From Rheinheimera sp. (GTDB taxonomy: Bacteria; Pseudomonadota; Gammaproteobacteria; Enterobacterales; Alteromonadaceae), in assembly GCF_003543135.1 (NCBI RefSeq), contig NZ_DPJG01000016.1: DNA of 64,000 nt. The stretch is one strand, 5' to 3'. Both the position numbers and the translations under genes were made by a program. Positions 31,747 through 40,364 of the stretch are shown one piece after another (the first letter of the stretch is position 1; each line of letters opens with the position of its first letter). A model generated the notes under the pieces. It was not told the DNA's origin. It did not search any database and saw only the letters and a program-made list of their open reading frames with translations.

Positions 31747-33396
31747 ATGACCGATTTGAAACGCCAGGCTGAGGCCTCGGAAGAAGCTTTATGGCGCATT
31801 TTCACGGTGCCGGAAGCGCCAGACTCCACGCTCAGTATTATTGAGCAGAATATTTCGCAAAACCTGGCGGGTTTTTTGCGCGAAAGCATAGTGGCAGTGG
31901 AAAAACCACTGTGGCAAATCGAACGTGATTTTCAGGCGTATCAAATTCCGGCCGAGCCAAAATTTGTGTCGGATTATGCCGAAAACATGATGGAAAAGCT
32001 GGTTGCCCATTCGGTGCATACAGCGGCCCCCAGTTTTATTGGCCATATGACCTCGGCTTTGCCTTATTTTGTGTTGCCCCTGTCCAAAATGATGGTGGGG
32101 CTGAATCAAAACCTGGTAAAAATTGAAACCTCCAAGGCCTTTACGCCGCTGGAACGTCAGGTGCTTGGCATGATGCACCACCTGGTGTACGGCGAAAGTG
32201 AAGGTTTTTATAAAAAGTGGTTACACAGCGCCAATCATTCATTAGGCGCTTTTTGCTCGGGTGGCACTGTGGCCAATATGACGGCGCTGTGGATTGCCCG
32301 TAACCGATTATTGCGCCCTGATGGCGACTTTAAAGGCGTGGCCAAAGAAGGTTTATTCCGCGCTATGCGCCATTACGGGTATCAGGATTTAGCCATTCTG
32401 GTGTCGGAGCGCGGCCATTATTCGCTGCGTAAAGCTGCCGATATCCTGGGTATTGGCCGCGATATGCTGATCCCGGTGAAAACCGACGAACACAACAAAG
32501 TCGACAGCAATGAAATGCGCCGCGTTGCCGCTGATTTAGCGGCACGTTCTATCCGCGTGATGGCGATAGTGGGCGTGGCTGGTACTACTGAAACCGGCAA
32601 TATCGATCCGCTGGACGAACTGGCCGATTTAGCCGCCGACTTAAACTGCCATTTCCATGTGGATGCCGCCTGGGGTGGTGCAACTTTACTCTCTGATAAA
32701 TATCGTTATTTACTCAAAGGTATTGAACGCGCTGATTCAGTGACCATAGACGCGCATAAACAAATGTATGTGCCTATGGGCGCCGGTATGGTGGTGTTTA
32801 AACACCCGTCAGCAGCGCATGCCATTGAACATCACGCCGAATATATCCTGAGGAAAGGCTCCAAAGACTTAGGCAGCCAGACGCTGGAAGGCTCACGCCC
32901 CGGCATGGCAATGCTGGTGCACGCCTGTTTGCAGGTGATAGGCCGCAAAGGCTACGAAATTCTGATCAACCGAAGCCTGGAAAAAGCCCGTTATTTTGCC
33001 GGTTTAATCGACCTGCATCCGGAGTTTGAGCTGATCACCGCCCCTGAGCTTTGTTTATTAACCTACCGTTATGTGCCAGCCAAGGTGCAACAGGCGATGC
33101 AAAAAGCCAAAGCAGCAGGCGATACCGAGCGGCTGCAGAAATTTAATGAGCTATTAAGTGGGCTCACCAAATTTATTCAAAAACGCCAGCGTGAAGAGGG
33201 TAAATCTTTTGTCTCCCGCACCCGGTTAAAACCACAAAGATACCAACGCCAGGACACAGTGGTGTTCCGGGTGGTACTGGCCAACCCACTGACGACAGAC
33301 AATATTTTGCACGAAGTATTGGCAGAGCAAGTGGAGCTGGCGGCGATGGATAAAGAGTTTTTGCCGAAGCTGCTGAGTATGGCAAAGGATGGTTAG
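31747..33396 (+). CDS. panP: Pyridoxal-dependent aspartate 1-decarboxylase PanP
   Basis: APDSTL, FIGHMTSALP, FHVDAAWGG, DAHKQMY and LEGSRPGMA. Confidence 0.88.
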   Translation: MTDLKRQAEASEEALWRIFTVPEAPDSTLSIIEQNISQNLAGFLRESIVAVEKPLWQIERDFQAYQIPAEPKFVSDYAENMMEKLVAHSVHTAAPSFIGHMTSALPYFVLPLSKMMVGLNQNLVKIETSKAFTPLERQVLGMMHHLVYGESEGFYKKWLHSANHSLGAFCSGGTVANMTALWIARNRLLRPDGDFKGVAKEGLFRAMRHYGYQDLAILVSERGHYSLRKAADILGIGRDMLIPVKTDEHNKVDSNEMRRVAADLAARSIRVMAIVGVAGTTETGNIDPLDELADLAADLNCHFHVDAAWGGATLLSDKYRYLLKGIERADSVTIDAHKQMYVPMGAGMVVFKHPSAAHAIEHHAEYILRKGSKDLGSQTLEGSRPGMAMLVHACLQVIGRKGYEILINRSLEKARYFAGLIDLHPEFELITAPELCLLTYRYVPAKVQQAMQKAKAAGDTERLQKFNELLSGLTKFIQKRQREEGKSFVSRTRLKPQRYQRQDTVVFRVVLANPLTTDNILHEVLAEQVELAAMDKEFLPKLLSMAKDG

Positions 33397-33431
33397 CTGT
33401 TTGGCGTAACAGCTTTTATCGCTTCTTGCTG

Positions 33432-33458
33432 AAAACGGCTGCTGTTGCAGCCGTTTTT
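33432..33458 (+). terminator. Terminator after panP
   Basis: AAAACGGCTGC-tgtt-GCAGCCGTTTTT. Confidence 0.85.
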
Positions 33459-33598
33459 GTTTTTATGTTTAGCAACATGGGGCTGGTGTTGGCTTTTTCG
33501 CAAGCCAAAGGCGTTGCTGGTTGAGCTGATGCCTGCGGACTTGTCATGTCTTTCAGCTTGCAGCTGATGGGGCTATAGAAGCGGAGGTTGTATGGGGG

Positions 33599-33650
33599 TG
33601 AGTGCTACCACATAGGTGACACAGCAGTTCAACCACATAGGTGACAGTGT
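33599..33650. mobile_element. Orphan IS481-like terminal remnant
   Basis: Begins TGA; 15 bp direct repeat ACCACATAGGTGACA at 33607-33621 and 33632-33646, resembling the reiterated transposase sites of IS481 ends; no transposase adjacent. Confidence 0.5.
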
Positions 33651-33681
33651 GTTTTAACAAGCTAAGTGTTTGTTTTATTTG

Positions 33682-33914
33682 ATGCCTGCGGCATGGCGCT
33701 ATGCGGGGTCTCGCCCCCGCAGGCGAGTCTCTTTCTTTGCTGACAAAGAAAGAGACGCAAAGAAATCACCCCGAGATCGCTCGAAAGCCCGTTGTTTTGA
33801 CACAATTTTGAGGCGCCGCCAAAACTCGGCAAGCGCTAGCGTCGCTTGCCTCAAACAGTTGGCGTCTTAAAACCTCAAAATCGGCCAAAACAACGGCTCG
33901 CTTGACGGGGCCAA
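33682..33914 (+). repeat. ~230 bp nested-hairpin element, copy L1
   Basis: Inverted homologue of 34869-35099; hairpins at 33727-33756 and 33828-33850 plus a long outer stem CCCCG...CGGGG. Confidence 0.9.
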
Positions 33915-34149
33915 GAGCGCTGCTGTCGTAAATTGGCTATTTATGGTTTGTGTCATTTGCTGACTATTAACAAATCAACGCTCACGAAAATTTCAATACT
34001 TCACGCGCTGCCAAAAAGTTAAAAAATCATGCATTATTCATGACGTACTTCAGCTAATTACCCGTGTTCAGACTTTAACGATTCCGTCAAAATAAGTTGG
34101 CCACAACATTATGACTCCCAGTGAGGGAAATGGGTTGGGAGAAAGATTA

Positions 34150-34659
34150 ATGGATTTAAAAGAAAAACTCGCATTGTCATCTGCTCTCGTTGCAGTCCTC
34201 GTTGTTGGTTCTGCTTTCCTTTTTAGAGGTGAGGATACCGTCATTCTGCGATTGCAGAATTGGTCAACGGAGACGTCATTCCAAGTAGCTAGAAAAGAGC
34301 CTGAGAGCCTTTCGATACCATCGAAAGGCAACCTGGGGGCTTTTTATAAATGTATGAGTAGATACTTTGATGGCTCAGAAAGGAATTCAGGTTTGCCGGT
34401 AACAGGGAGACCTGGGTATTTCTCACTTGTACTGGATGAAAATACTGAAATGAAAATCGGCTTTGTTTCTACTCAAGCGGGTTCGTTTACAATTTATACC
34501 CGTGATTCTTCAGGCAAAATTACAGGAGCTTCTCTTCGGTACGCGATAAGCTGTGATCATCGATTGTTAAACACTCCTGAAAGCGATATGCATTGTGTTG
34601 ATAAAGTAATTGGAAATGAAATCCGACCGGTTTGTACATACCAGCCGAAGCAACTTTAG
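34150..34659 (+). CDS. Orphan hypothetical protein with N-terminal membrane anchor (cargo between L1 and L2)
   Basis: GGGAG SD sequence, then MDLKEKLALSSALVAVLVVGSAFLF; the ORF track starts upstream at 34111; no recognisable family. Confidence 0.7.
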   Translation: MDLKEKLALSSALVAVLVVGSAFLFRGEDTVILRLQNWSTETSFQVARKEPESLSIPSKGNLGAFYKCMSRYFDGSERNSGLPVTGRPGYFSLVLDENTEMKIGFVSTQAGSFTIYTRDSSGKITGASLRYAISCDHRLLNTPESDMHCVDKVIGNEIRPVCTYQPKQL

Positions 34660-34868
34660 CCCCCAATAGTCTGTAAAAAGTTAGTTGACGTACAAAGCTC
34701 CAGTTTAAAAAAAGATGCTTTTTTTCCTCGATAATTTTTGGCAATGCATTGGGTTCATGAAAAACGAATGACCGTAATTAAGGCAAAGTAGGTATTCGTT
34801 TTTCAAATATCTCCGCTTTTAAACAACCGCTATTTGCTCAACACAGAAATTTCCAAGCAGCTCTGCTG

Positions 34869-35099
34869 TTGGCCCCGTCAAGCGAGCCGTTGTTTTGGCT
34901 GGTTTTGAGGTTTTAAGACGCCAACTGTTTGAGCGGGGTGACGCTAGCACCCCGCGAGTTTTGGCGGCGCCTCAAAAGCGAGTCAAAACAGCGGGCTTTC
35001 GAGCGATCTCGGGGTCGTTTTTTATGTCACTTTTTGTCGACACAAAAAGTGACTCGCCCGCGGGGGCGAGACCCCGCATACGTGCCATGCCGCAGGCAT
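34869..35099 (-). repeat. ~230 bp nested-hairpin element, copy L2 (inverted)
   Basis: Reverse complement aligns end to end with 33682-33914; differences cluster in stems and are compensatory. Confidence 0.9.
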
Positions 35100-35353
35100 T
35101 AATAAAATCAGAATTACCAATAAGTTAACCTGATTCGGCCGCCGCGGTTAAACCCGGCATACGCGCCATGCCGCTGGCATCAAACACAACAAAGCTTAGC
35201 AACCAACGCTGCCGGGTTGGTTAGGCAACACCAAGCATCAGCTCAAAACCCAATACCAAATCGGCAAAGTCACAAAACTCAACAACAACCCAAAACCCAC
35301 CAGGTTCCCCACCATCCTGGGGGCCAGGCCGGCCATAATGGCGATGGCGCCGG
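35060..35353. repeat. 294 bp direct repeat, left copy
   Basis: Colinear and same length as 39284-39577; about 4 scattered substitutions plus one 22 nt divergent patch. Confidence 0.95.
35238..35353 (-). pseudogene. Duplicated 3' fragment of the AEC transporter gene
   Basis: Nearly identical to 39462-39577 including the TGA stop; encodes ...GAIAIMAGLAPRMVGNLVGFGLLLSFVTLPIWYWVLS*; no 5' part. Confidence 0.9.
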
Positions 35354-35358
35354 TCCTC

Positions 35359-35470
35359 AGGGTCAGGTCTTGCCTTTTGCCTAATCCTAACCCCTTTGGG
35401 ATTAAAAGCTAAACCTTATTAATTAGCCTGAATCAAACTCACTAAAAGGCAAAAAGCAAGACCTGACCCT
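35359..35470. mobile_element. 112 bp MITE-like element with 24 bp terminal inverted repeats
   Basis: AGGGTCAGGTCTTGCCTTTTGCCT (35359-35382) and AGGCAAAAAGCAAGACCTGACCCT (35447-35470), 23/24 complementary; no ORF; no clear TSD. Confidence 0.65.
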
Positions 35471-35486
35471 ACTGGTTGTGGTTGCA

Positions 35487-35963
35487 TTATTCGCTTTGGA
35501 AAACAACACGCTCGTATTCATGAACAGCCGATTTAACCGGCTCCCAAATCGTTACATAGCGCCCATCCGAGTCAAATATCTTCCCATGATTGCGGTCCGC
35601 AGCGACCTTCATCTGGATAAAATTGGATGCGAACCATGAATTATTGCCTATATGAGAATGAATGTCTTCTTCAGTAATTTTCTCAAGGCCAGACCGCTTA
35701 AGTTCAATGTAAGCATTAAGTATTTGGGAATTGTATTGTGACTGTCGTTCTGGCTTTGACCACATTTTCAATCGCCGAACTACTTTAGCTATCTCGGCAC
35801 TAGATTCTCTTTCAACGAAAGTCTCTTGTTGGTTTGTGTTTGATTTAATCTTATCTACCAAAATTAAGCATTTCACCAACTTAGAATGTATTTCTTTTCG
35901 ATCTGAATCATCCACAAGCATGAATGCGGCTTCTTCAAGTTCACTTCTCAATTCATCAAGCAT
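35487..35963 (-). CDS. Hypothetical soluble protein (AT-rich island gene)
   Basis: GGAGG SD sequence, 158 aa, C-terminal SNFIQMK..DRNHGKIF..IWEPV; function unknown. Confidence 0.75.
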   Translation of the reverse strand: MLDELRSELEEAAFMLVDDSDRKEIHSKLVKCLILVDKIKSNTNQQETFVERESSAEIAKVVRRLKMWSKPERQSQYNSQILNAYIELKRSGLEKITEEDIHSHIGNNSWFASNFIQMKVAADRNHGKIFDSDGRYVTIWEPVKSAVHEYERVVFQSE

Positions 35964-36193
35964 AAAGACCTCCCAAAGACGTAATTAGTCTAATTTAGTC
36001 TATTATAAGCATCAATAAACATTTTTCATATAGCTGTTATCATGCAGACTTCTCAGCCGCACTACAGATGCTCATCAAGTCCGGTCAGTAGTGATAAAAC
36101 CGATTTATAGTTTCACTCAGAGATGTCCGCTTTTGGCACAAAGCAGCTGATGGCCATCCAATGCCTTGGTCTGAATAAAACGAATACTACAGA

Positions 36194-36517
36194 TTACTTC
36201 GTTAGCACTCCGGTGCTGGTGCAGCAAGCGGTAATGACGACCAGTGCCAACACCAATGCACTTGCCATGCTGAACTGTCCTCCCGACCAGTCCCGGGCGA
36301 CATGACTAAACATGGGATTATCCTGTAATTGCCAGGCCGCTAATCCAACACCTGAGACCAGACCCAACCACACGGCGCGGTTAGAGTGCCGGCGTGGAGC
36401 TGGTAAGCGCGACATGACGGTATCGACAAAACCGTCATCTGGGACTGCATCTGCTGCACTGTCGCGAAGCAGCTGGTTCAACAGGTCATCGTTTTGATCT
36501 TCCTTGCTTAAATTCAT
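36194..36517 (-). CDS. Putative membrane anti-sigma factor
   Basis: ATGA overlap with the ECF stop; DDGFVDTVMSRLP then two hydrophobic helices. Confidence 0.7.
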   Translation of the reverse strand: MNLSKEDQNDDLLNQLLRDSAADAVPDDGFVDTVMSRLPAPRRHSNRAVWLGLVSGVGLAAWQLQDNPMFSHVARDWSGGQFSMASALVLALVVITACCTSTGVLTK

Positions 36518-37083
36518 GTGGTCACTCCCGTATTCTCGTTGCTTTGGTAGTCTTTCAGCCATTGACGCAAACGTGCACTGCCGCGTGTCGCATGTGTTTT
36601 TACCGTGCCAAGGGGCAACCCGGTGATGTCGGCCGTTTCCTCATGACTCAGTCCCATTTGCGTGTGATACAGCATCACCAGCCGTTCGCCTTCAGGCAGT
36701 GCTTGCAGTGCCTTTTGCAAATCACGTTGCAAACCTGCGCGCTGTCGAGGTCCTGTGGCCTGGTCAAGCAAAGTTTCTTCCTGCATTTCATGAATGGGTT
36801 GCTGCCGATACGCCTGCAGGAAGCAATTGTGTGCGATGCGATACAACCAGGTTGAAAATCGCGCTTCGCTGCGAAATTGCGACAATTTCCGCCATGCCTG
36901 CAGAAAGGTGTCTTGCGCTAAATCATCTGCCCAGGCGTTATCATTCCGGCACAGGCGTCGCAACTGCGCCCGCACGTTGCTTTGATGCCTGCGGACCAGC
37001 TGATTAAACGCCTGCCGGTCTTCATTCAGCAGGACACGCTTCACCAGCGCCAAATCAAGGCGTGATTCGACTTCAGGAACCAC
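36514..37083 (-). CDS. ECF RNA polymerase sigma-70 factor
   Basis: AFNQLVRRHQ, ADDLAQDTFLQAW, FSTWLYRIA and GLPLGTVKTH; GTG start at 37083 inferred. Confidence 0.9.
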   Translation of the reverse strand: MVPEVESRLDLALVKRVLLNEDRQAFNQLVRRHQSNVRAQLRRLCRNDNAWADDLAQDTFLQAWRKLSQFRSEARFSTWLYRIAHNCFLQAYRQQPIHEMQEETLLDQATGPRQRAGLQRDLQKALQALPEGERLVMLYHTQMGLSHEETADITGLPLGTVKTHATRGSARLRQWLKDYQSNENTGVTT

Positions 37084-37456
37084 GCATGTCGCCTGCGCGC
37101 TGATCGAGCCACCAATTACCGAGATAGCCAAGGCCCAACATGACGGGCAATAGCCCCAGGCCCCAAAGGTCCGCAAGACGCTGCCCCTCGTCACTTTGCA
37201 CCGGCAACACCAGTAGGGTCAACATCAGACCGACACCGCCGCACAATAGAACCAGACCACGTCGCCGATCAGCATGGGGTTGATGCTGCTCGGCCAAAAC
37301 CGTCAAGGGCAAGTCCACGCCTTTGTCGGCCAGTTGCAGCAAGGTGCGATAACGCGCCTCGGTTTGCTGGCGAACAAAGCGCAGGGCCAGTGCTACCAGG
37401 GCAACAGGCGTTGCCAGTACTAAAAGCGGTATCATCATTTCGATGGTCATTTGCAC
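37073..37456 (-). CDS. Small membrane protein (DUF6249-like) co-encoded with the ECF sigma
   Basis: TM - RYRTLLQLADKG - RRRGLVLL - TM - GLLPVMLGLGYL; overlaps the sigma gene start. Confidence 0.65.
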   Translation of the reverse strand: MQMTIEMMIPLLVLATPVALVALALRFVRQQTEARYRTLLQLADKGVDLPLTVLAEQHQPHADRRRGLVLLCGGVGLMLTLLVLPVQSDEGQRLADLWGLGLLPVMLGLGYLGNWWLDQRAGDMRGS

Positions 37457-37478
37457 ACACCTACTGTTTTATAAGGGG

Positions 37479-38918
37479 CTATTGGGATTTGGTGGCAACA
37501 GGCGTTACCAGCGGCATCCGGTTACCATAGTATTCAACCAGCGATTCTGCCGCGGGTGGGTCCATGTTGGAAAGAGCAATCACCACATCACCAGTCGCCG
37601 GATAAATTCGTAAAGCGCCGTTCATGCCCTCTGCACCACCAGCATGTCCGAAGTGACGTGCAATGCCTTCACCGCCCAATTGGAAACCGTAGCCGTACAA
37701 GCCGCTGGGCGTCTGACTGCGGGTCGCGGCTGCCAGTGTTTGTGCTGATATCAACTTGCCGCTTAATAATGCCTGTGCAAAGAGTTGCAGATCGCCGGTC
37801 GTTGAATAGCCACCGCCGGCGGCAGTGCCGCGCCACGGCAAGGTGTCCTGATTATTCACCAAACCTTTTTCTGAGTGCATATAACCGACCGATAGCTGTG
37901 TGCGTACCTGTTCTTCCGGTTCAGCACCAGTGGCGCGCATCCCGGCGGGTTTGAAGATATGGTCGTGGACATAAGTGTGGTAAGACTGGCCGCTCACCCG
38001 TTCAATCACGCGTCCCAACAGGACATAACCATAGTTGGAATATGCTTCGCGGCTACCGGGGATAAACTCTGACGCGCGCTGGCCAAACAACCGGATATAA
38101 TCGGCGTGCTCACGGGTATTTAGTCTTTGTTGCTGATATTCATCAGTAAAAATGTCGCCTGTGCCACCGGTATGGGTCAGTAAGTGCCGCAGAGTTGTGT
38201 GCTTGGCGAGCGTGGTATTTGGATAATCGGATAAATAAGTGATCAGTGGTGCATCCAGCTGTAACTGGCCGCGTTCAACCAGTTGCAGCACAGCAATCGC
38301 CGTAAACATTTTATACATAGAGCCGAGGCGGAATTGTGTGTTAGCAGTGTGCTTTTGCGCAGTGTCGCGACGCGCGTCACCAAAATGTTGTTGCAGCCGA
38401 ATGTTGCCGCCACGAGCGACCAAAAGATTGCCTGCGAATTGTTCCTCTGCCAGCAGTTTCTGCGCTTTGCGTTGCAGCCGCTGCTGCGCATCCTGCTCGG
38501 ACAACCTTGTGGGCATCAAATCCGCGGGCACAATTGCCATCGGCTTTAGGCTGACCGATTTGACCCGCTTTGAGTCTTTGTCATCCAGTTGCAGCGTCAT
38601 GCTGCCGACCCGGTCGCCATCATGTTCGCGAATAATCACCGTGACCTGGCCGGCATCATCCTGCGTCACACGCAACGCCTCAAATCCGCCCGTCATCTGC
38701 CGGAAAGCCAGTTCACGCTCCAGTTGCATATCCGGTTCATGTGCTGTTTTAAACGCCTGCAGCTTGGCCGCATCGCCGGTGTTAAAAGCCTGCAGCCGCT
38801 GTTTGGCGAGTTGCGCTGCGGGCGTCTTTGGCCAACTGACGTCAGCCAAAGTCGTTGCAGAGGCGAATGCCGCACAAAACAAAGCCAGCAGGGAAATCTT
38901 CTTATTGAATAAATGCAT
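37479..38918 (-). CDS. Secreted serine hydrolase (beta-lactamase class C / PBP family)
   Basis: Signal peptide; SMYK (SxxK), YSN (YxN), HAGG; start MHLFNKK after GGAG. Confidence 0.88.
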   Translation of the reverse strand: MHLFNKKISLLALFCAAFASATTLADVSWPKTPAAQLAKQRLQAFNTGDAAKLQAFKTAHEPDMQLERELAFRQMTGGFEALRVTQDDAGQVTVIIREHDGDRVGSMTLQLDDKDSKRVKSVSLKPMAIVPADLMPTRLSEQDAQQRLQRKAQKLLAEEQFAGNLLVARGGNIRLQQHFGDARRDTAQKHTANTQFRLGSMYKMFTAIAVLQLVERGQLQLDAPLITYLSDYPNTTLAKHTTLRHLLTHTGGTGDIFTDEYQQQRLNTREHADYIRLFGQRASEFIPGSREAYSNYGYVLLGRVIERVSGQSYHTYVHDHIFKPAGMRATGAEPEEQVRTQLSVGYMHSEKGLVNNQDTLPWRGTAAGGGYSTTGDLQLFAQALLSGKLISAQTLAAATRSQTPSGLYGYGFQLGGEGIARHFGHAGGAEGMNGALRIYPATGDVVIALSNMDPPAAESLVEYYGNRMPLVTPVATKSQ

Positions 38919-39283
38919 GTGATGTCTCCGTCCAGTCCAATACTGGTTGCAAAGACTCTGATGCAAAGGGATGCGGTTTTAGATTCAATGCCCGGAAAAT
39001 TTTTTCCAGGGCTCCGGCGGCCTCAGTGAGTTGGTTGCAACCTTCAATCGACTTTCAGTTAAACCAGCATTAGCCGAAGTTGATGATCAGCCGCTGACTG
39101 ACAAAAACCGCGATCCGACGAAGTCGTTATTTTCCGTGGAGGTGGTGGTGCGATTAATTTGCAACAGGTGGTAAGTAAGGGTTGCAATAAGGTGGTCAAT
39201 TAAATGCAATTAATCAGGTGTTGGTTTGCATGATGCAGGCGGTATGGCGTTGTTTTCAGCTTGCAGCTGATGGGGCTGTAGCA

Positions 39284-39577
39284 GCGGGGGCGAGACCCCG
39301 CATACGTGCCATGCCGCAGGCATTAATAAATTCAGAATTACCAATAAGTTAGAGCGATTAGGTAGTCGCAGTGAAACCCGGCATACGCGCCATGCCGCTG
39401 GCATCAAACACAACAAAGCTTAGCAACCAACGCTGCCAGGTTGGTTAGGCAACACCAAGCCTCAGCTCAAAACCCAATACCAAATCGGCAAAGTCACAAA
39501 ACTCAGCAACAACCCAAAACCCACCAGGTTCCCCACCATCCTGGGGGCCAGGCCGGCCATAATGGCGATGGCGCCGG
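39284..39577. repeat. 294 bp direct repeat, right copy (includes the 3' end of the intact AEC gene)
   Basis: See 35060-35353. Confidence 0.95.
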
Positions 39578-40364
39578 CGGAAATCATCGGTGGCATGGCG
39601 GCTTCAAAGACCGAGACAGTCACAGCTTTGCCTTCCAAGCCCAGCGCATAACAAACGGCGTAGGCCAATAACGGCATTAAAATCAGTTTGATACTGATGC
39701 CGCTGACCAGCGGTGATAAACGCTCGCCACCGAGCGAAAAGCGCAAGGTAAAACCCACCGCCACCATAATCAGTGGCACTAAGGTTTGTGCCAGGTTGTC
39801 GATCAGCGCCTGGAAAAAACTGGGGTAGGGGGTGTTTTTCAAAAGCAAAGCCGCCACTAAGGCCAGAAAAGGCGGGAAAGTTAAAATTTTCAGGCTGATG
39901 CTTTTGACCGTGGCTTTTTCGGCACTGGGGCTAAAAGCAGCGGCCAGAATAGTGGAGTAGGTGGCAAGGGCGACAAAAGAGCCGGCCTGGTCGTAAATCA
40001 GCGCATAAGGCAGATGATCCCCGCCAAAAAACGCCTCTATCATTGGAAAACCCAAAAACGAGGTATTGCCAAGCGGCAGCACTATTAAAAGTGCTGCGGT
40101 AACATCGCGGCTCCACTGGAAAATTTTACTGAGCAGCAGCACCAAAGCCACCACAATCAACAACAATACCCAGGGCGTCACGGCCGGAATAAGCAGCGCT
40201 GAGGATAAAGTCAGGGCCGGAATTTTCTGCAAAATAAGGGCGGGCAAGGCAATATAAAGCACAAAAGCATTGAGTACAGCCGGTGTGTCCTGGCTGAATT
40301 TGGGGATAAAACGGATGCCAACCCCAATGGCCAGATACAGCAAAATCAGCAGAAAATTATCCAA
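39462..40364 (-). CDS. AEC (auxin efflux carrier) family transporter
   Basis: Multi-TM; LGNTSFLGFPMI and EAAMPPMISA motifs. Confidence 0.9.
   Translation of the reverse strand: MDNFLLILLYLAIGVGIRFIPKFSQDTPAVLNAFVLYIALPALILQKIPALTLSSALLIPAVTPWVLLLIVVALVLLLSKIFQWSRDVTAALLIVLPLGNTSFLGFPMIEAFFGGDHLPYALIYDQAGSFVALATYSTILAAAFSPSAEKATVKSISLKILTFPPFLALVAALLLKNTPYPSFFQALIDNLAQTLVPLIMVAVGFTLRFSLGGERLSPLVSGISIKLILMPLLAYAVCYALGLEGKAVTVSVFEAAMPPMISAGAIAIMAGLAPRMVGNLVGFGLLLSFVTLPIWYWVLS

Follow-up and report, generated by a model that had tools for sequence, protein, structure and literature searches.

A 294-nt direct repeat beside an AEC transporter gene of Rheinheimera sp. as a probable scar of stacked spacer alleles

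In bacteria generally, long direct repeats support RecA-dependent tandem duplication and amplification as well as Campbell-type integration. When such repeats include the 3' end of a gene they are routinely read as attachment (att) sites, and the same picture can come from homologous plus illegitimate recombination. Integrase-less elements flanked by attL and attR are a recognised class, the cis-mobilizable elements (CIMEs; ICEberg classes, PMC6323972). In homology-facilitated illegitimate recombination (HFIR), found in naturally transformable bacteria and in E. coli conjugation, one homologous anchor is combined with one illegitimate joint (PMC3240628), and clusters of repetitive extragenic palindromes (REP) or bacterial interspersed mosaic elements (BIMEs) are targets and breakpoints for mobile DNA (PMC1525189). 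Here we examine a 3.9-kb island in the genome of Rheinheimera sp. (hereafter G000), which lies in the spacer between panP and the gene for an AEC-family transporter and is bracketed by a 294-nt direct repeat that includes the 3' end of the AEC gene. The window is the whole 64,000-nt stretch of contig NZ_DPJG01000016.1 that was analysed, and all coordinates are window positions unless another contig is named. On balance, the repeat is probably the scar of a recombination that stacked two alleles of the spacer in tandem, and not an att site.

An initial annotation of the window had described the island as the attL/attR-like footprint of an insertion into a gene 3' end. Its account of the repeat as such was confirmed by a repeat search, pairwise alignment and the coordinates of the open reading frames (ORFs): 35060-35353 and 39284-39577 are an ungapped pair of 294-nt direct repeats, with starts 4224 nt apart, and each holds the last 116 bp of the AEC gene and 178 bp downstream. 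The stop codon TGA of the intact gene, an ORF at 39462-40364 on the minus strand, occupies 39462-39464, and the right copy consists of 116 nt of coding 3' end (39462-39577) followed by 178 nt downstream (39284-39461). The left copy, as the annotation had also stated, is a promoterless 3' fragment of AEC, with a sole open frame of 56 aa that is 93% identical to AEC residues 261-300. A pairwise count gave 14 mismatches (95.2% identity), located at 35107, at ten sites within a patch at 35128-35149, and at 35214, 35237 and 35282; the longest exact run common to both copies is 71 nt. The sequences flanking the two copies are unrelated on both sides. Within the 3.99-Mb genome, the 243 unique nt of the repeat (35111-35353) occur at just these two sites, and its first ~47 nt belong to a dispersed REP-like unit with ~10 further copies.

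The island between these copies contains, from left to right, a miniature inverted-repeat transposable element (MITE1), a gene for a 158-aa orphan protein, an operon for a serine hydrolase, a DUF6249 protein, an extracytoplasmic function (ECF) sigma factor and a 107-aa protein, and a second dispersed element (MITE2). To the left of the island lies a unit in which two inverted copies of a ~250-nt dispersed repeat, the L-arm and the R-arm, flank one cargo gene, and a short dispersed repeat, the TTTCAGC element, is found near both panP and AEC (Table 1). Comparison of this interval across the genus showed that panP and AEC are convergent neighbours in 24 genomes. The stop-to-stop distance is 62-1640 bp in 22 of these 24 syntenic genomes, including 729 bp and 1635 bp in the nearest relatives, G048 (Rheinheimera sp. 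4Y26) and G018 (a complete genome), and it reaches 5796 bp in G004 and 6071 bp in G000. Because the spacer is so short in 22 of the 24, the 3.9 kb of G000 is an insertion relative to its relatives, as had been proposed. The AEC orthologues of G014, G018 and G048 are 97-98% identical to that of G000.

To survey alleles of the spacer, exact protein sequences were searched in public assemblies (ENA and Logan), and the contigs were aligned to the window. Four spacer structures, here called the P, E, D and FWPV types, were found in DNA 97.5-100% identical to G000. The P allele (L095, SRR22388004; 99.3% identical) runs from the panP terminator and GTGTTGGC through a 357-nt flank, the operon and MITE2 to GTGTTGGT, the TTTCAGC element, one 294-nt copy and AEC. 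It is without MITE1, the orphan and the arm unit, and it is the sole P contig that spans panP to AEC; contigs from four other runs (L094 and L097-L099) lead from AEC through a single 294-nt copy into the operon and end at or inside it. Since five P-type contigs hold the operon beside AEC with a single repeat copy, the operon arrived without making the repeat. The E allele, cargo - R-arm - 294 - AEC, is present in L092, L096 and L100 and in the related species G018, although in the three conspecific contigs it may just as well represent the right-hand part of an FWPV-type array. The D type is G000 itself, with two 294-nt copies around MITE1, orphan, operon and MITE2. In the FWPV type, contig FWPV01007116 reads arm - TIR-domain cargo - R-arm - 294 - MITE1 - orphan - operon - MITE2 - TTTCAGC - arm - 358-aa cargo - R-arm, and FWWM01035500, which shares 522 nt with its end at 99.4% identity, carries on as R-arm - 294 - AEC. 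The FWPV contig was the only match in a scan of metagenome contigs for the junction between the AEC fragment (AEC') and MITE1. The idea that FWPV01007116 represents an island moved to another locus was withdrawn, as FWWM01035500 shows its right end to run into R-arm - 294 - AEC. Near-identical strains preserve an empty allele, an allele with the operon and no repeat, and a stacked allele with the repeat, a natural series of intermediates.

The repeat itself differs between these types. In the FWPV type it consists of the R-arm plus the 294 nt, 488 nt in all with 2 mismatches, as compared to 14 in 294 nt in G000. The right copy of G000 has the flank (TTTCAGC), patch and three single-nucleotide polymorphisms (SNPs) of P-type strains, and the left copy is flanked by the R-arm, as in the E type; the same adjacency of R-arm and 294-nt copy is present in G018, L092, L096 and L100. 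Across strains the sets of flank, patch and SNPs are shuffled, with four different combinations counted. These combinations, together with the contrast between 2/488 and 14/294 mismatches, are as would be expected if copies and alleles repeatedly underwent homologous exchange or gene conversion with one another. The 22-nt patch has at least four alleles in near-identical strains, one of them common to the other species G018, and the neighbouring 270 nt barely vary.

The structures and their distribution are direct observations, whereas the order of events and the enzymes involved are what we infer from them. In our model, the panP/AEC spacer of this species would be a REP- and MITE-rich recombination hot spot with several alternative alleles. 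An 'empty' E allele would run from panP through a TTTCAGC element, an arm-cargo-arm unit and 178 nt to AEC. The P allele would have a block of ~3.6 kb (the 357-nt flank, the hydrolase/DUF6249/ECF-sigma/107-aa operon and MITE2) between the panP terminator and the TTTCAGC element, probably copied from a locus like that of 4Y26, bracketed only by the octamer GTGTTGGY and followed by one 294-nt copy. G000 would then be an E allele, from panP to 116 nt inside AEC, in tandem with a P allele, which starts at the left edge of the operon and includes the intact AEC; one illegitimate junction, TCCTC-MITE1-orphan, would join the two. The 294-nt repeat would be the part of the spacer present in both. The cheapest route would combine a single homologous exchange with a single illegitimate joint on the opposite side, the partners being DNA of two conspecific strains. 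This might have been an HFIR-like event or, alternatively, a tandem duplication with filler, then allelic replacement through the 294-nt homology. The duplicated homology would subsequently have been used by the homologous recombination of the cell, leaving the copies homogenised in some strains and mosaic in others, and the 4224-nt unit could in principle be deleted or amplified by the same means.

The two edges of the repeat are accommodated by this model in different ways. The left edge is just the point at which the arm-cargo-arm unit is present (left copy) or absent (right copy); in the FWPV type, where the R-arm of the unit belongs to both copies, the repeat is longer. The only true novel joint is where the left copy stops on its right side, AEC nt 116 against TCCTC-MITE1. 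L056, L058, L061 and L062 all have this AEC'/MITE1 joint (~35352-35359) in identical form, and in L057 and L060 it contains GTCCTCA duplicated in tandem. This sharing across contigs fits a single origin. A 22-nt indel just past MITE1 was noted alongside the GTCCTCA duplication of L057 and L060.

The operon core (36134-39104) together with MITE2 is 97% identical to a locus on G048:C11; for R. tilapiae (G058), G015 and G049 the figures are 93%, 89% and 88%. It lies at loci unrelated to panP/AEC in G048, G058 and G015 and on contigs other than the panP/AEC contigs in G049 and G056, and it is missing genome-wide from G018 and G014. The flanks of the operon locus in G048 match G000:C33 on either side of 68433/68506, at just 88-93% identity, and G000 is empty there. 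The 357-nt flank of the P allele, which is absent from G000, matches what stands to the left of the operon in 4Y26. Its start falls within a 4Y26 ORF, which points to transfer of the operon into this spacer from a locus resembling that of 4Y26. With its left end inside that ORF of the source locus, the block does not stop there at a natural element boundary. GTGTTGGC and GTGTTGGT bracket this 3.6-kb block in P-type strains and may represent an 8-nt target duplication or microhomology. On the right, MITE2 meets GTGTTGGT in the same way in the P, D and FWPV types, which therefore share one operon insertion. That insertion made at most the 8-nt duplication (GTGTTGGC/GTGTTGGT), not the 294-nt repeat. 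Beyond the genus, relatives of the hydrolase were found in a metagenome-assembled genome (MAG) of Permianibacter (81%) and, at ~61-62%, in Thermomonas and another gammaproteobacterial MAG (L077, L080, L083). The operon may be widely exchanged. It provides a natural example of a small accessory operon, an ECF-sigma/serine-hydrolase envelope module, that moves between loci and strains without a dedicated recombinase.

Among described processes, HFIR resembles this locus in that foreign or allelic DNA is fixed next to the anchor by one homologous exchange and one non-homologous joint, with no dedicated recombinase. An HFIR product has one junction inside homology and one without, usually with 3-12 nt of microhomology. 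In G000 the joint of AEC nt 116 with TCCTC-MITE1 was seen, and the homologous side is deduced from flanks colinear with the E and P alleles. Unlike HFIR, the G000 product keeps the recipient's copy of part of the anchor, as a 294-488-nt duplication, and the process is read from natural alleles. In favour of such a process, the genome encodes ComEC. Several points weigh against the stacking of two alleles. The usual outcome of classical HFIR is replacement or loss of recipient DNA, not a duplication, and natural transformation has not been demonstrated for this organism. The order of events is unrooted, and derivation among the L057, D and P types could have run either way. Searches turned up neither a source nor an original left flank for MITE1-orphan, the sequence from which any microhomology at the joint would be read, and the pre-insertion target of the GTGTTGGY octamer was not directly observed. 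Finally, the FWPV-type structure combines contigs of two different metagenome assemblies, and the G000 arrangement is known from assembled contigs.

A second explanation, which we hold to be possible yet rather unlikely, takes the 4224-nt unit (294 - MITE1 - orphan - operon - MITE2 - TTTCAGC) to be active still, as a RecA-dependent circle or a unit of tandem amplification. It would have entered in the Campbell manner, as a circle with its own AEC 3' end, by a single crossover, and would still excise, amplify and re-insert at any 294-nt copy. Like known RecA amplification and Campbell systems, G000 has direct repeats of a few hundred nt that bracket a unit which could be lost, amplified or circularised. 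ENA contig L057 (k=141) has the corresponding junction form: it reads panP - 357 - operon - MITE2 - TTTCAGC - 294 - MITE1 - orphan and then the start of the operon again. Its 294-nt copy combines a right-type flank and patch in the 5' half with left-type SNPs in the 3' half, as expected at the junction of a circle or tandem, and its two operon starts differ by 1 SNP in a 113-nt overlap. Logan contig L069 stops at 36134, where the operon has its left edge, a hint of two contexts in that sample, and the homogenised copies of the FWPV type are also consistent with such a unit. However, L057 may be a chimera of co-occurring P- and D/FWPV-type strains; given the SNP between its operon starts and the length of sequence that the strain types can share, this is about as likely. 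The first SNP between P-type and FWPV-like 294-nt copies falls at offset 155; because such copies can share 154 nt, more than k-1 = 140, L057 was downgraded as proof of a circle or tandem. P-type strains, moreover, show arrival of the operon without any repeat. In contrast to RecA amplification systems, the bracketing copies come from different alleles and not from one in-situ duplication, and the unit is known here at single copy. The initial annotation had suggested that RecA could act between the repeats. The copies do appear to recombine, as judged by the mismatch contrast and the mosaics, while excision or amplification is plausible and was not demonstrated.

It is very unlikely that the repeats are attL and attR of a site-specific element that lost its integrase, as in a CIME, or that uses one in trans, with the AEC 3' end as attB. 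Like integrative islands and CIMEs, the G000 island sits at a gene 3' end between direct repeats, the gene is restored, and relatives have an empty site. One 294-type copy beside an intact AEC was found in G018, G048 and the conspecific contigs L092 and L100; such single-copy empty sites are predicted equally by the recombination model and the att model. Eleven tyrosine recombinase hits above the Pfam cut-off are present in G000, and all of these genes lie away from this spacer. Scans of the island ORFs against Pfam and NCBIfam detected no recombinase domain, which bears out the earlier statement that the island has no integrase, and the same scans found no recombinase in or beside the spacer in G004, G015, G018 or the FWPV contig. 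No cognate integrative and conjugative element (ICE) or integrase was detected at this spacer in relatives with scanned ORFs, and the 62-1640 bp spacers of 22 of 24 genomes are too short for an ICE. Unlike integrative islands and CIMEs, the locus has no integrase in cis and none known in trans, its repeat is long, variable and mosaic, and sister strains hold the same cargo repeat-free. The length of the repeat is not fixed, being 294 nt with 14 mismatches, 488 nt or a single copy, and the differences between copies are spread along it, with no short identical core that recurs at both ends in every occurrence. In addition, the operon is found at other loci in four congeners without any AEC fragment, and the left edge of the repeat coincides with the presence/absence boundary of another element. 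With the operon beside a single copy in five conspecific contigs, the attL/attR-like footprint first proposed was not supported. Long gene-end repeats need not be att sites, and island-calling should allow for this.

An island that was ancestral at the site and lost from the relatives, with the AEC fragment arising independently, is similarly improbable. The operon does occupy this spacer in many conspecific samples. It is, however, absent from G018 and G014 and lies at other loci or on other contigs in the five carriers named above, nearly all syntenic genomes (22/24) have short spacers, and the P allele still has 357 nt from the 4Y26 context, among them the end of the neighbouring ORF. Misjoining of two strains or two repeat copies in contig C15 is hardly credible, even though many G000 contigs end in the dispersed repeats that crowd this region and at least part of the supporting data is metagenomic: with no exact run above 71 nt in common the copies share no 126-mer, so a k=127 graph keeps them apart; a 176-kb ENA contig from a sediment metagenome (k=127) covers the whole region, with 100% identity for 12.5 kb; matches at 100% also came from Logan contigs of SRR6486591 and SRR944699; one Logan contig of 3990 nt spans the island and includes 30 nt of each copy, the last of the left and the first of the right; and the R-arm - 294 - MITE1 joint is present in three independent assemblies.

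Like REP/BIME hot spots, this spacer has all of its boundaries, bar the AEC' joint, in REP-like hairpins or dispersed repeats of ~110-250 nt, and the breakpoints of G014 fall in the same cluster. Unlike elements that target REP or BIME clusters, the locus has no transposase or intact REP-associated tyrosine transposase (RAYT), and the inserted units carry cargo genes rather than transposases. A RAYT was rejected as the driver, the only trace being a 41-residue remnant with a stop codon. In mode it resembles HFIR or Campbell-type recombination in a REP-rich hot spot. The locus thus looks like an ordinary, if well-documented, outcome of recombination within a hypervariable spacer and does not represent a new kind of element. 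As a more speculative extension, which we put forward with considerable doubt, the duplicated AEC 3' end with its REP/arm segment (294-488 nt) could act as portable homology, through which accessory modules are stacked, swapped, deleted or amplified by host recombination, together with the arm-cargo-arm units. If true, this would be an integrase-independent, homology-guided site of cassette accretion kept in a natural population.

Table 1. Features of the panP/AEC spacer and its surroundings in G000
Feature	Position	Strand	Remarks
panP (PLP-dependent aspartate 1-decarboxylase)	31747-33396	+	Conserved left anchor; NCBIfam TIGR03799, 962.7 bits (cut-off 606)
panP terminator hairpin, 13-bp stem + T run	33430-33459	+	Kept in P-type contigs L095 and L057
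GTGTTGGC octamer	33486-33493		Spacer uninterrupted here in G000; operon block joined here in P-type strains
Dispersed 'TTTCAGCTTGCAGCTGATGGGGCT' repeat element, panP-side copy	33551-33587		92% identical to 39254-39290; ~10 genome copies
L-arm, ~250-nt dispersed structured repeat	33669-33925		At least 13 copies in G000; inverted relative to 34858-35110
169-aa orphan, cargo gene between arms	34150-34659	+	GC ~39-42%; other strains hold other cargo here
R-arm	34858-35110		Outer 51 nt = first 51 nt of left repeat copy
Left 294-nt copy	35060-35353		178 nt AEC downstream + AEC' 35238-35353; patch type i, SNPs G, A, A
Hypervariable 22-nt patch between two REP palindromes	35128-35149		Right-copy counterpart 39352-39373; at least 4 alleles among strains
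TCCTC linker	35354-35358		At AEC nt 116/MITE1 joint, the only clearly illegitimate joint
MITE1, ~112-119 nt, 24-nt terminal inverted repeats	35359-35477 (112-nt element 35359-35470)		5 nt from left copy end
158-aa orphan	35487-35963	-	GC ~37%
Operon block	36125-39104	-	Pfam, NCBIfam and gene calls
107-aa putative membrane/anti-sigma partner	36194-36517	-	In operon block
ECF sigma factor	36514-37083	-	In operon block
DUF6249 protein	37073-37450	-	In operon block
AmpH-like beta-lactamase-fold serine hydrolase, 479 aa	37479-38918	-	In operon block
MITE2, ~113-nt dispersed element	39104-39217		Travels with operon block
GTGTTGGT octamer	39218-39225		Right partner of 33486-33493; flanks operon block in P-type strains
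TTTCAGC element, AEC-side copy	39245-39283		Homology with G014 island-free AEC flank starts here
Right 294-nt copy	39284-39577		Patch type ii, SNPs A, C, G; = P-type single copy bar one further SNP
AEC-family transporter gene, intact, 300 aa	39462-40364	-	Pfam Mem_trans 1.7e-28; TIGR00946

At least three modules, each with a history of its own, make up the mosaic of the island: MITE1 with the orphan, the operon block, and MITE2. The initial annotation was correct in placing a MITE-like element 5 bp from the junction, with TCCTC between the two. A 97% identical copy of MITE1 lies elsewhere in G014, and ~70% copies are found in G000 contigs C26 and C33. The 158-aa orphan is tied to AEC'/MITE1 in all contigs that reach that side, and it stands left of the operon solely in D- and FWPV-type strains. 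It differs from the operon in GC content (~37% vs ~50-57%) and has 19 homologues, all unnamed and none with a Pfam domain; searches of Pfam and NCBIfam assigned no family to it or to the 169-aa orphan, and for neither orphan did a named homologue turn up. A composite or mobilisation unit bounded by MITEs was rejected, as MITE1 and MITE2 have no similarity in either orientation and there is no flanking duplication. Homology of G000 with the FWPV-type island ends at 39279, within the AEC-side TTTCAGC element.

The units composed of L-arm, one cargo gene and R-arm always lie between a TTTCAGC element and the same REP hairpin (GCGGGGGCGAGACCCCGC). They were observed at window positions 33551-35110, in G018 (L032, 4169-5547) and twice in FWPV01007116 (L067, 5933-7532 and 11740-13517), and their cargo varies: a 169-aa orphan, a 165-aa orphan, a TIR-domain protein of the CAP12/Pycsar type and a 358-aa orphan. 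In G014 and the P-type strains the two hairpins or elements abut with nothing between them. These observations suggest that the arm units are a REP-targeted, cargo-carrying element or are exchanged as cassettes via the arms. Many of the ~250-nt arm copies in G000 sit at contig ends. Contig L072 (ERZ922795 k127_436259) folds back, TTTCAGC - arm - inverted TTTCAGC/MITE2 end, as either a true palindrome or an assembler fold-back. The left end of the FWPV type (L067, 1-5905) joins DNA that in G000 lies at C12:11046-16952, a convergent-gene terminator without an arm in G000; this join would be a second rearrangement or an insertion site, which our model leaves unexplained.

Other genomes have further changes in this spacer. 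In G004 the insert (L034, 10477-16294) is unrelated, with a TonB-dependent receptor, an SBP_bac_3 protein and two orphans, and in the G015 clade the spacer holds an M28 peptidase gene (L053, 2137-3186). G014, the closest relative, was rejected as an empty site, being rearranged here, and was kept solely for comparison of the AEC-side flank. Its chromosomal rearrangement has breakpoints at 33699 and 39245 inside this REP cluster (L051, L031); the panP side is joined to DNA at the end of G000:C27 and the AEC side to the start of G000:C7, and both contig ends carry these repeats.

The ~250-nt arms were also considered as integron attC sites, which measure about 60-140 nt, carry R''/R' boxes and follow each cassette in one orientation. 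This was rejected: real attC sites on G000 C34 are ~80 nt, have TAACAA...GTTAG boxes and are unrelated to the arms, which are inverted around their cargo. Two genes resembling integron integrases lie near arm copies, at G000:C34:309811-310770 (L090) and G000:C2:28995-29975 (L091), the IntI-type extra domain being judged by eye. The C34 integrase gene is followed, to about C34:320000, by small same-strand ORFs with attC-like sites of ~80 nt, among which one arm-type repeat is inserted.

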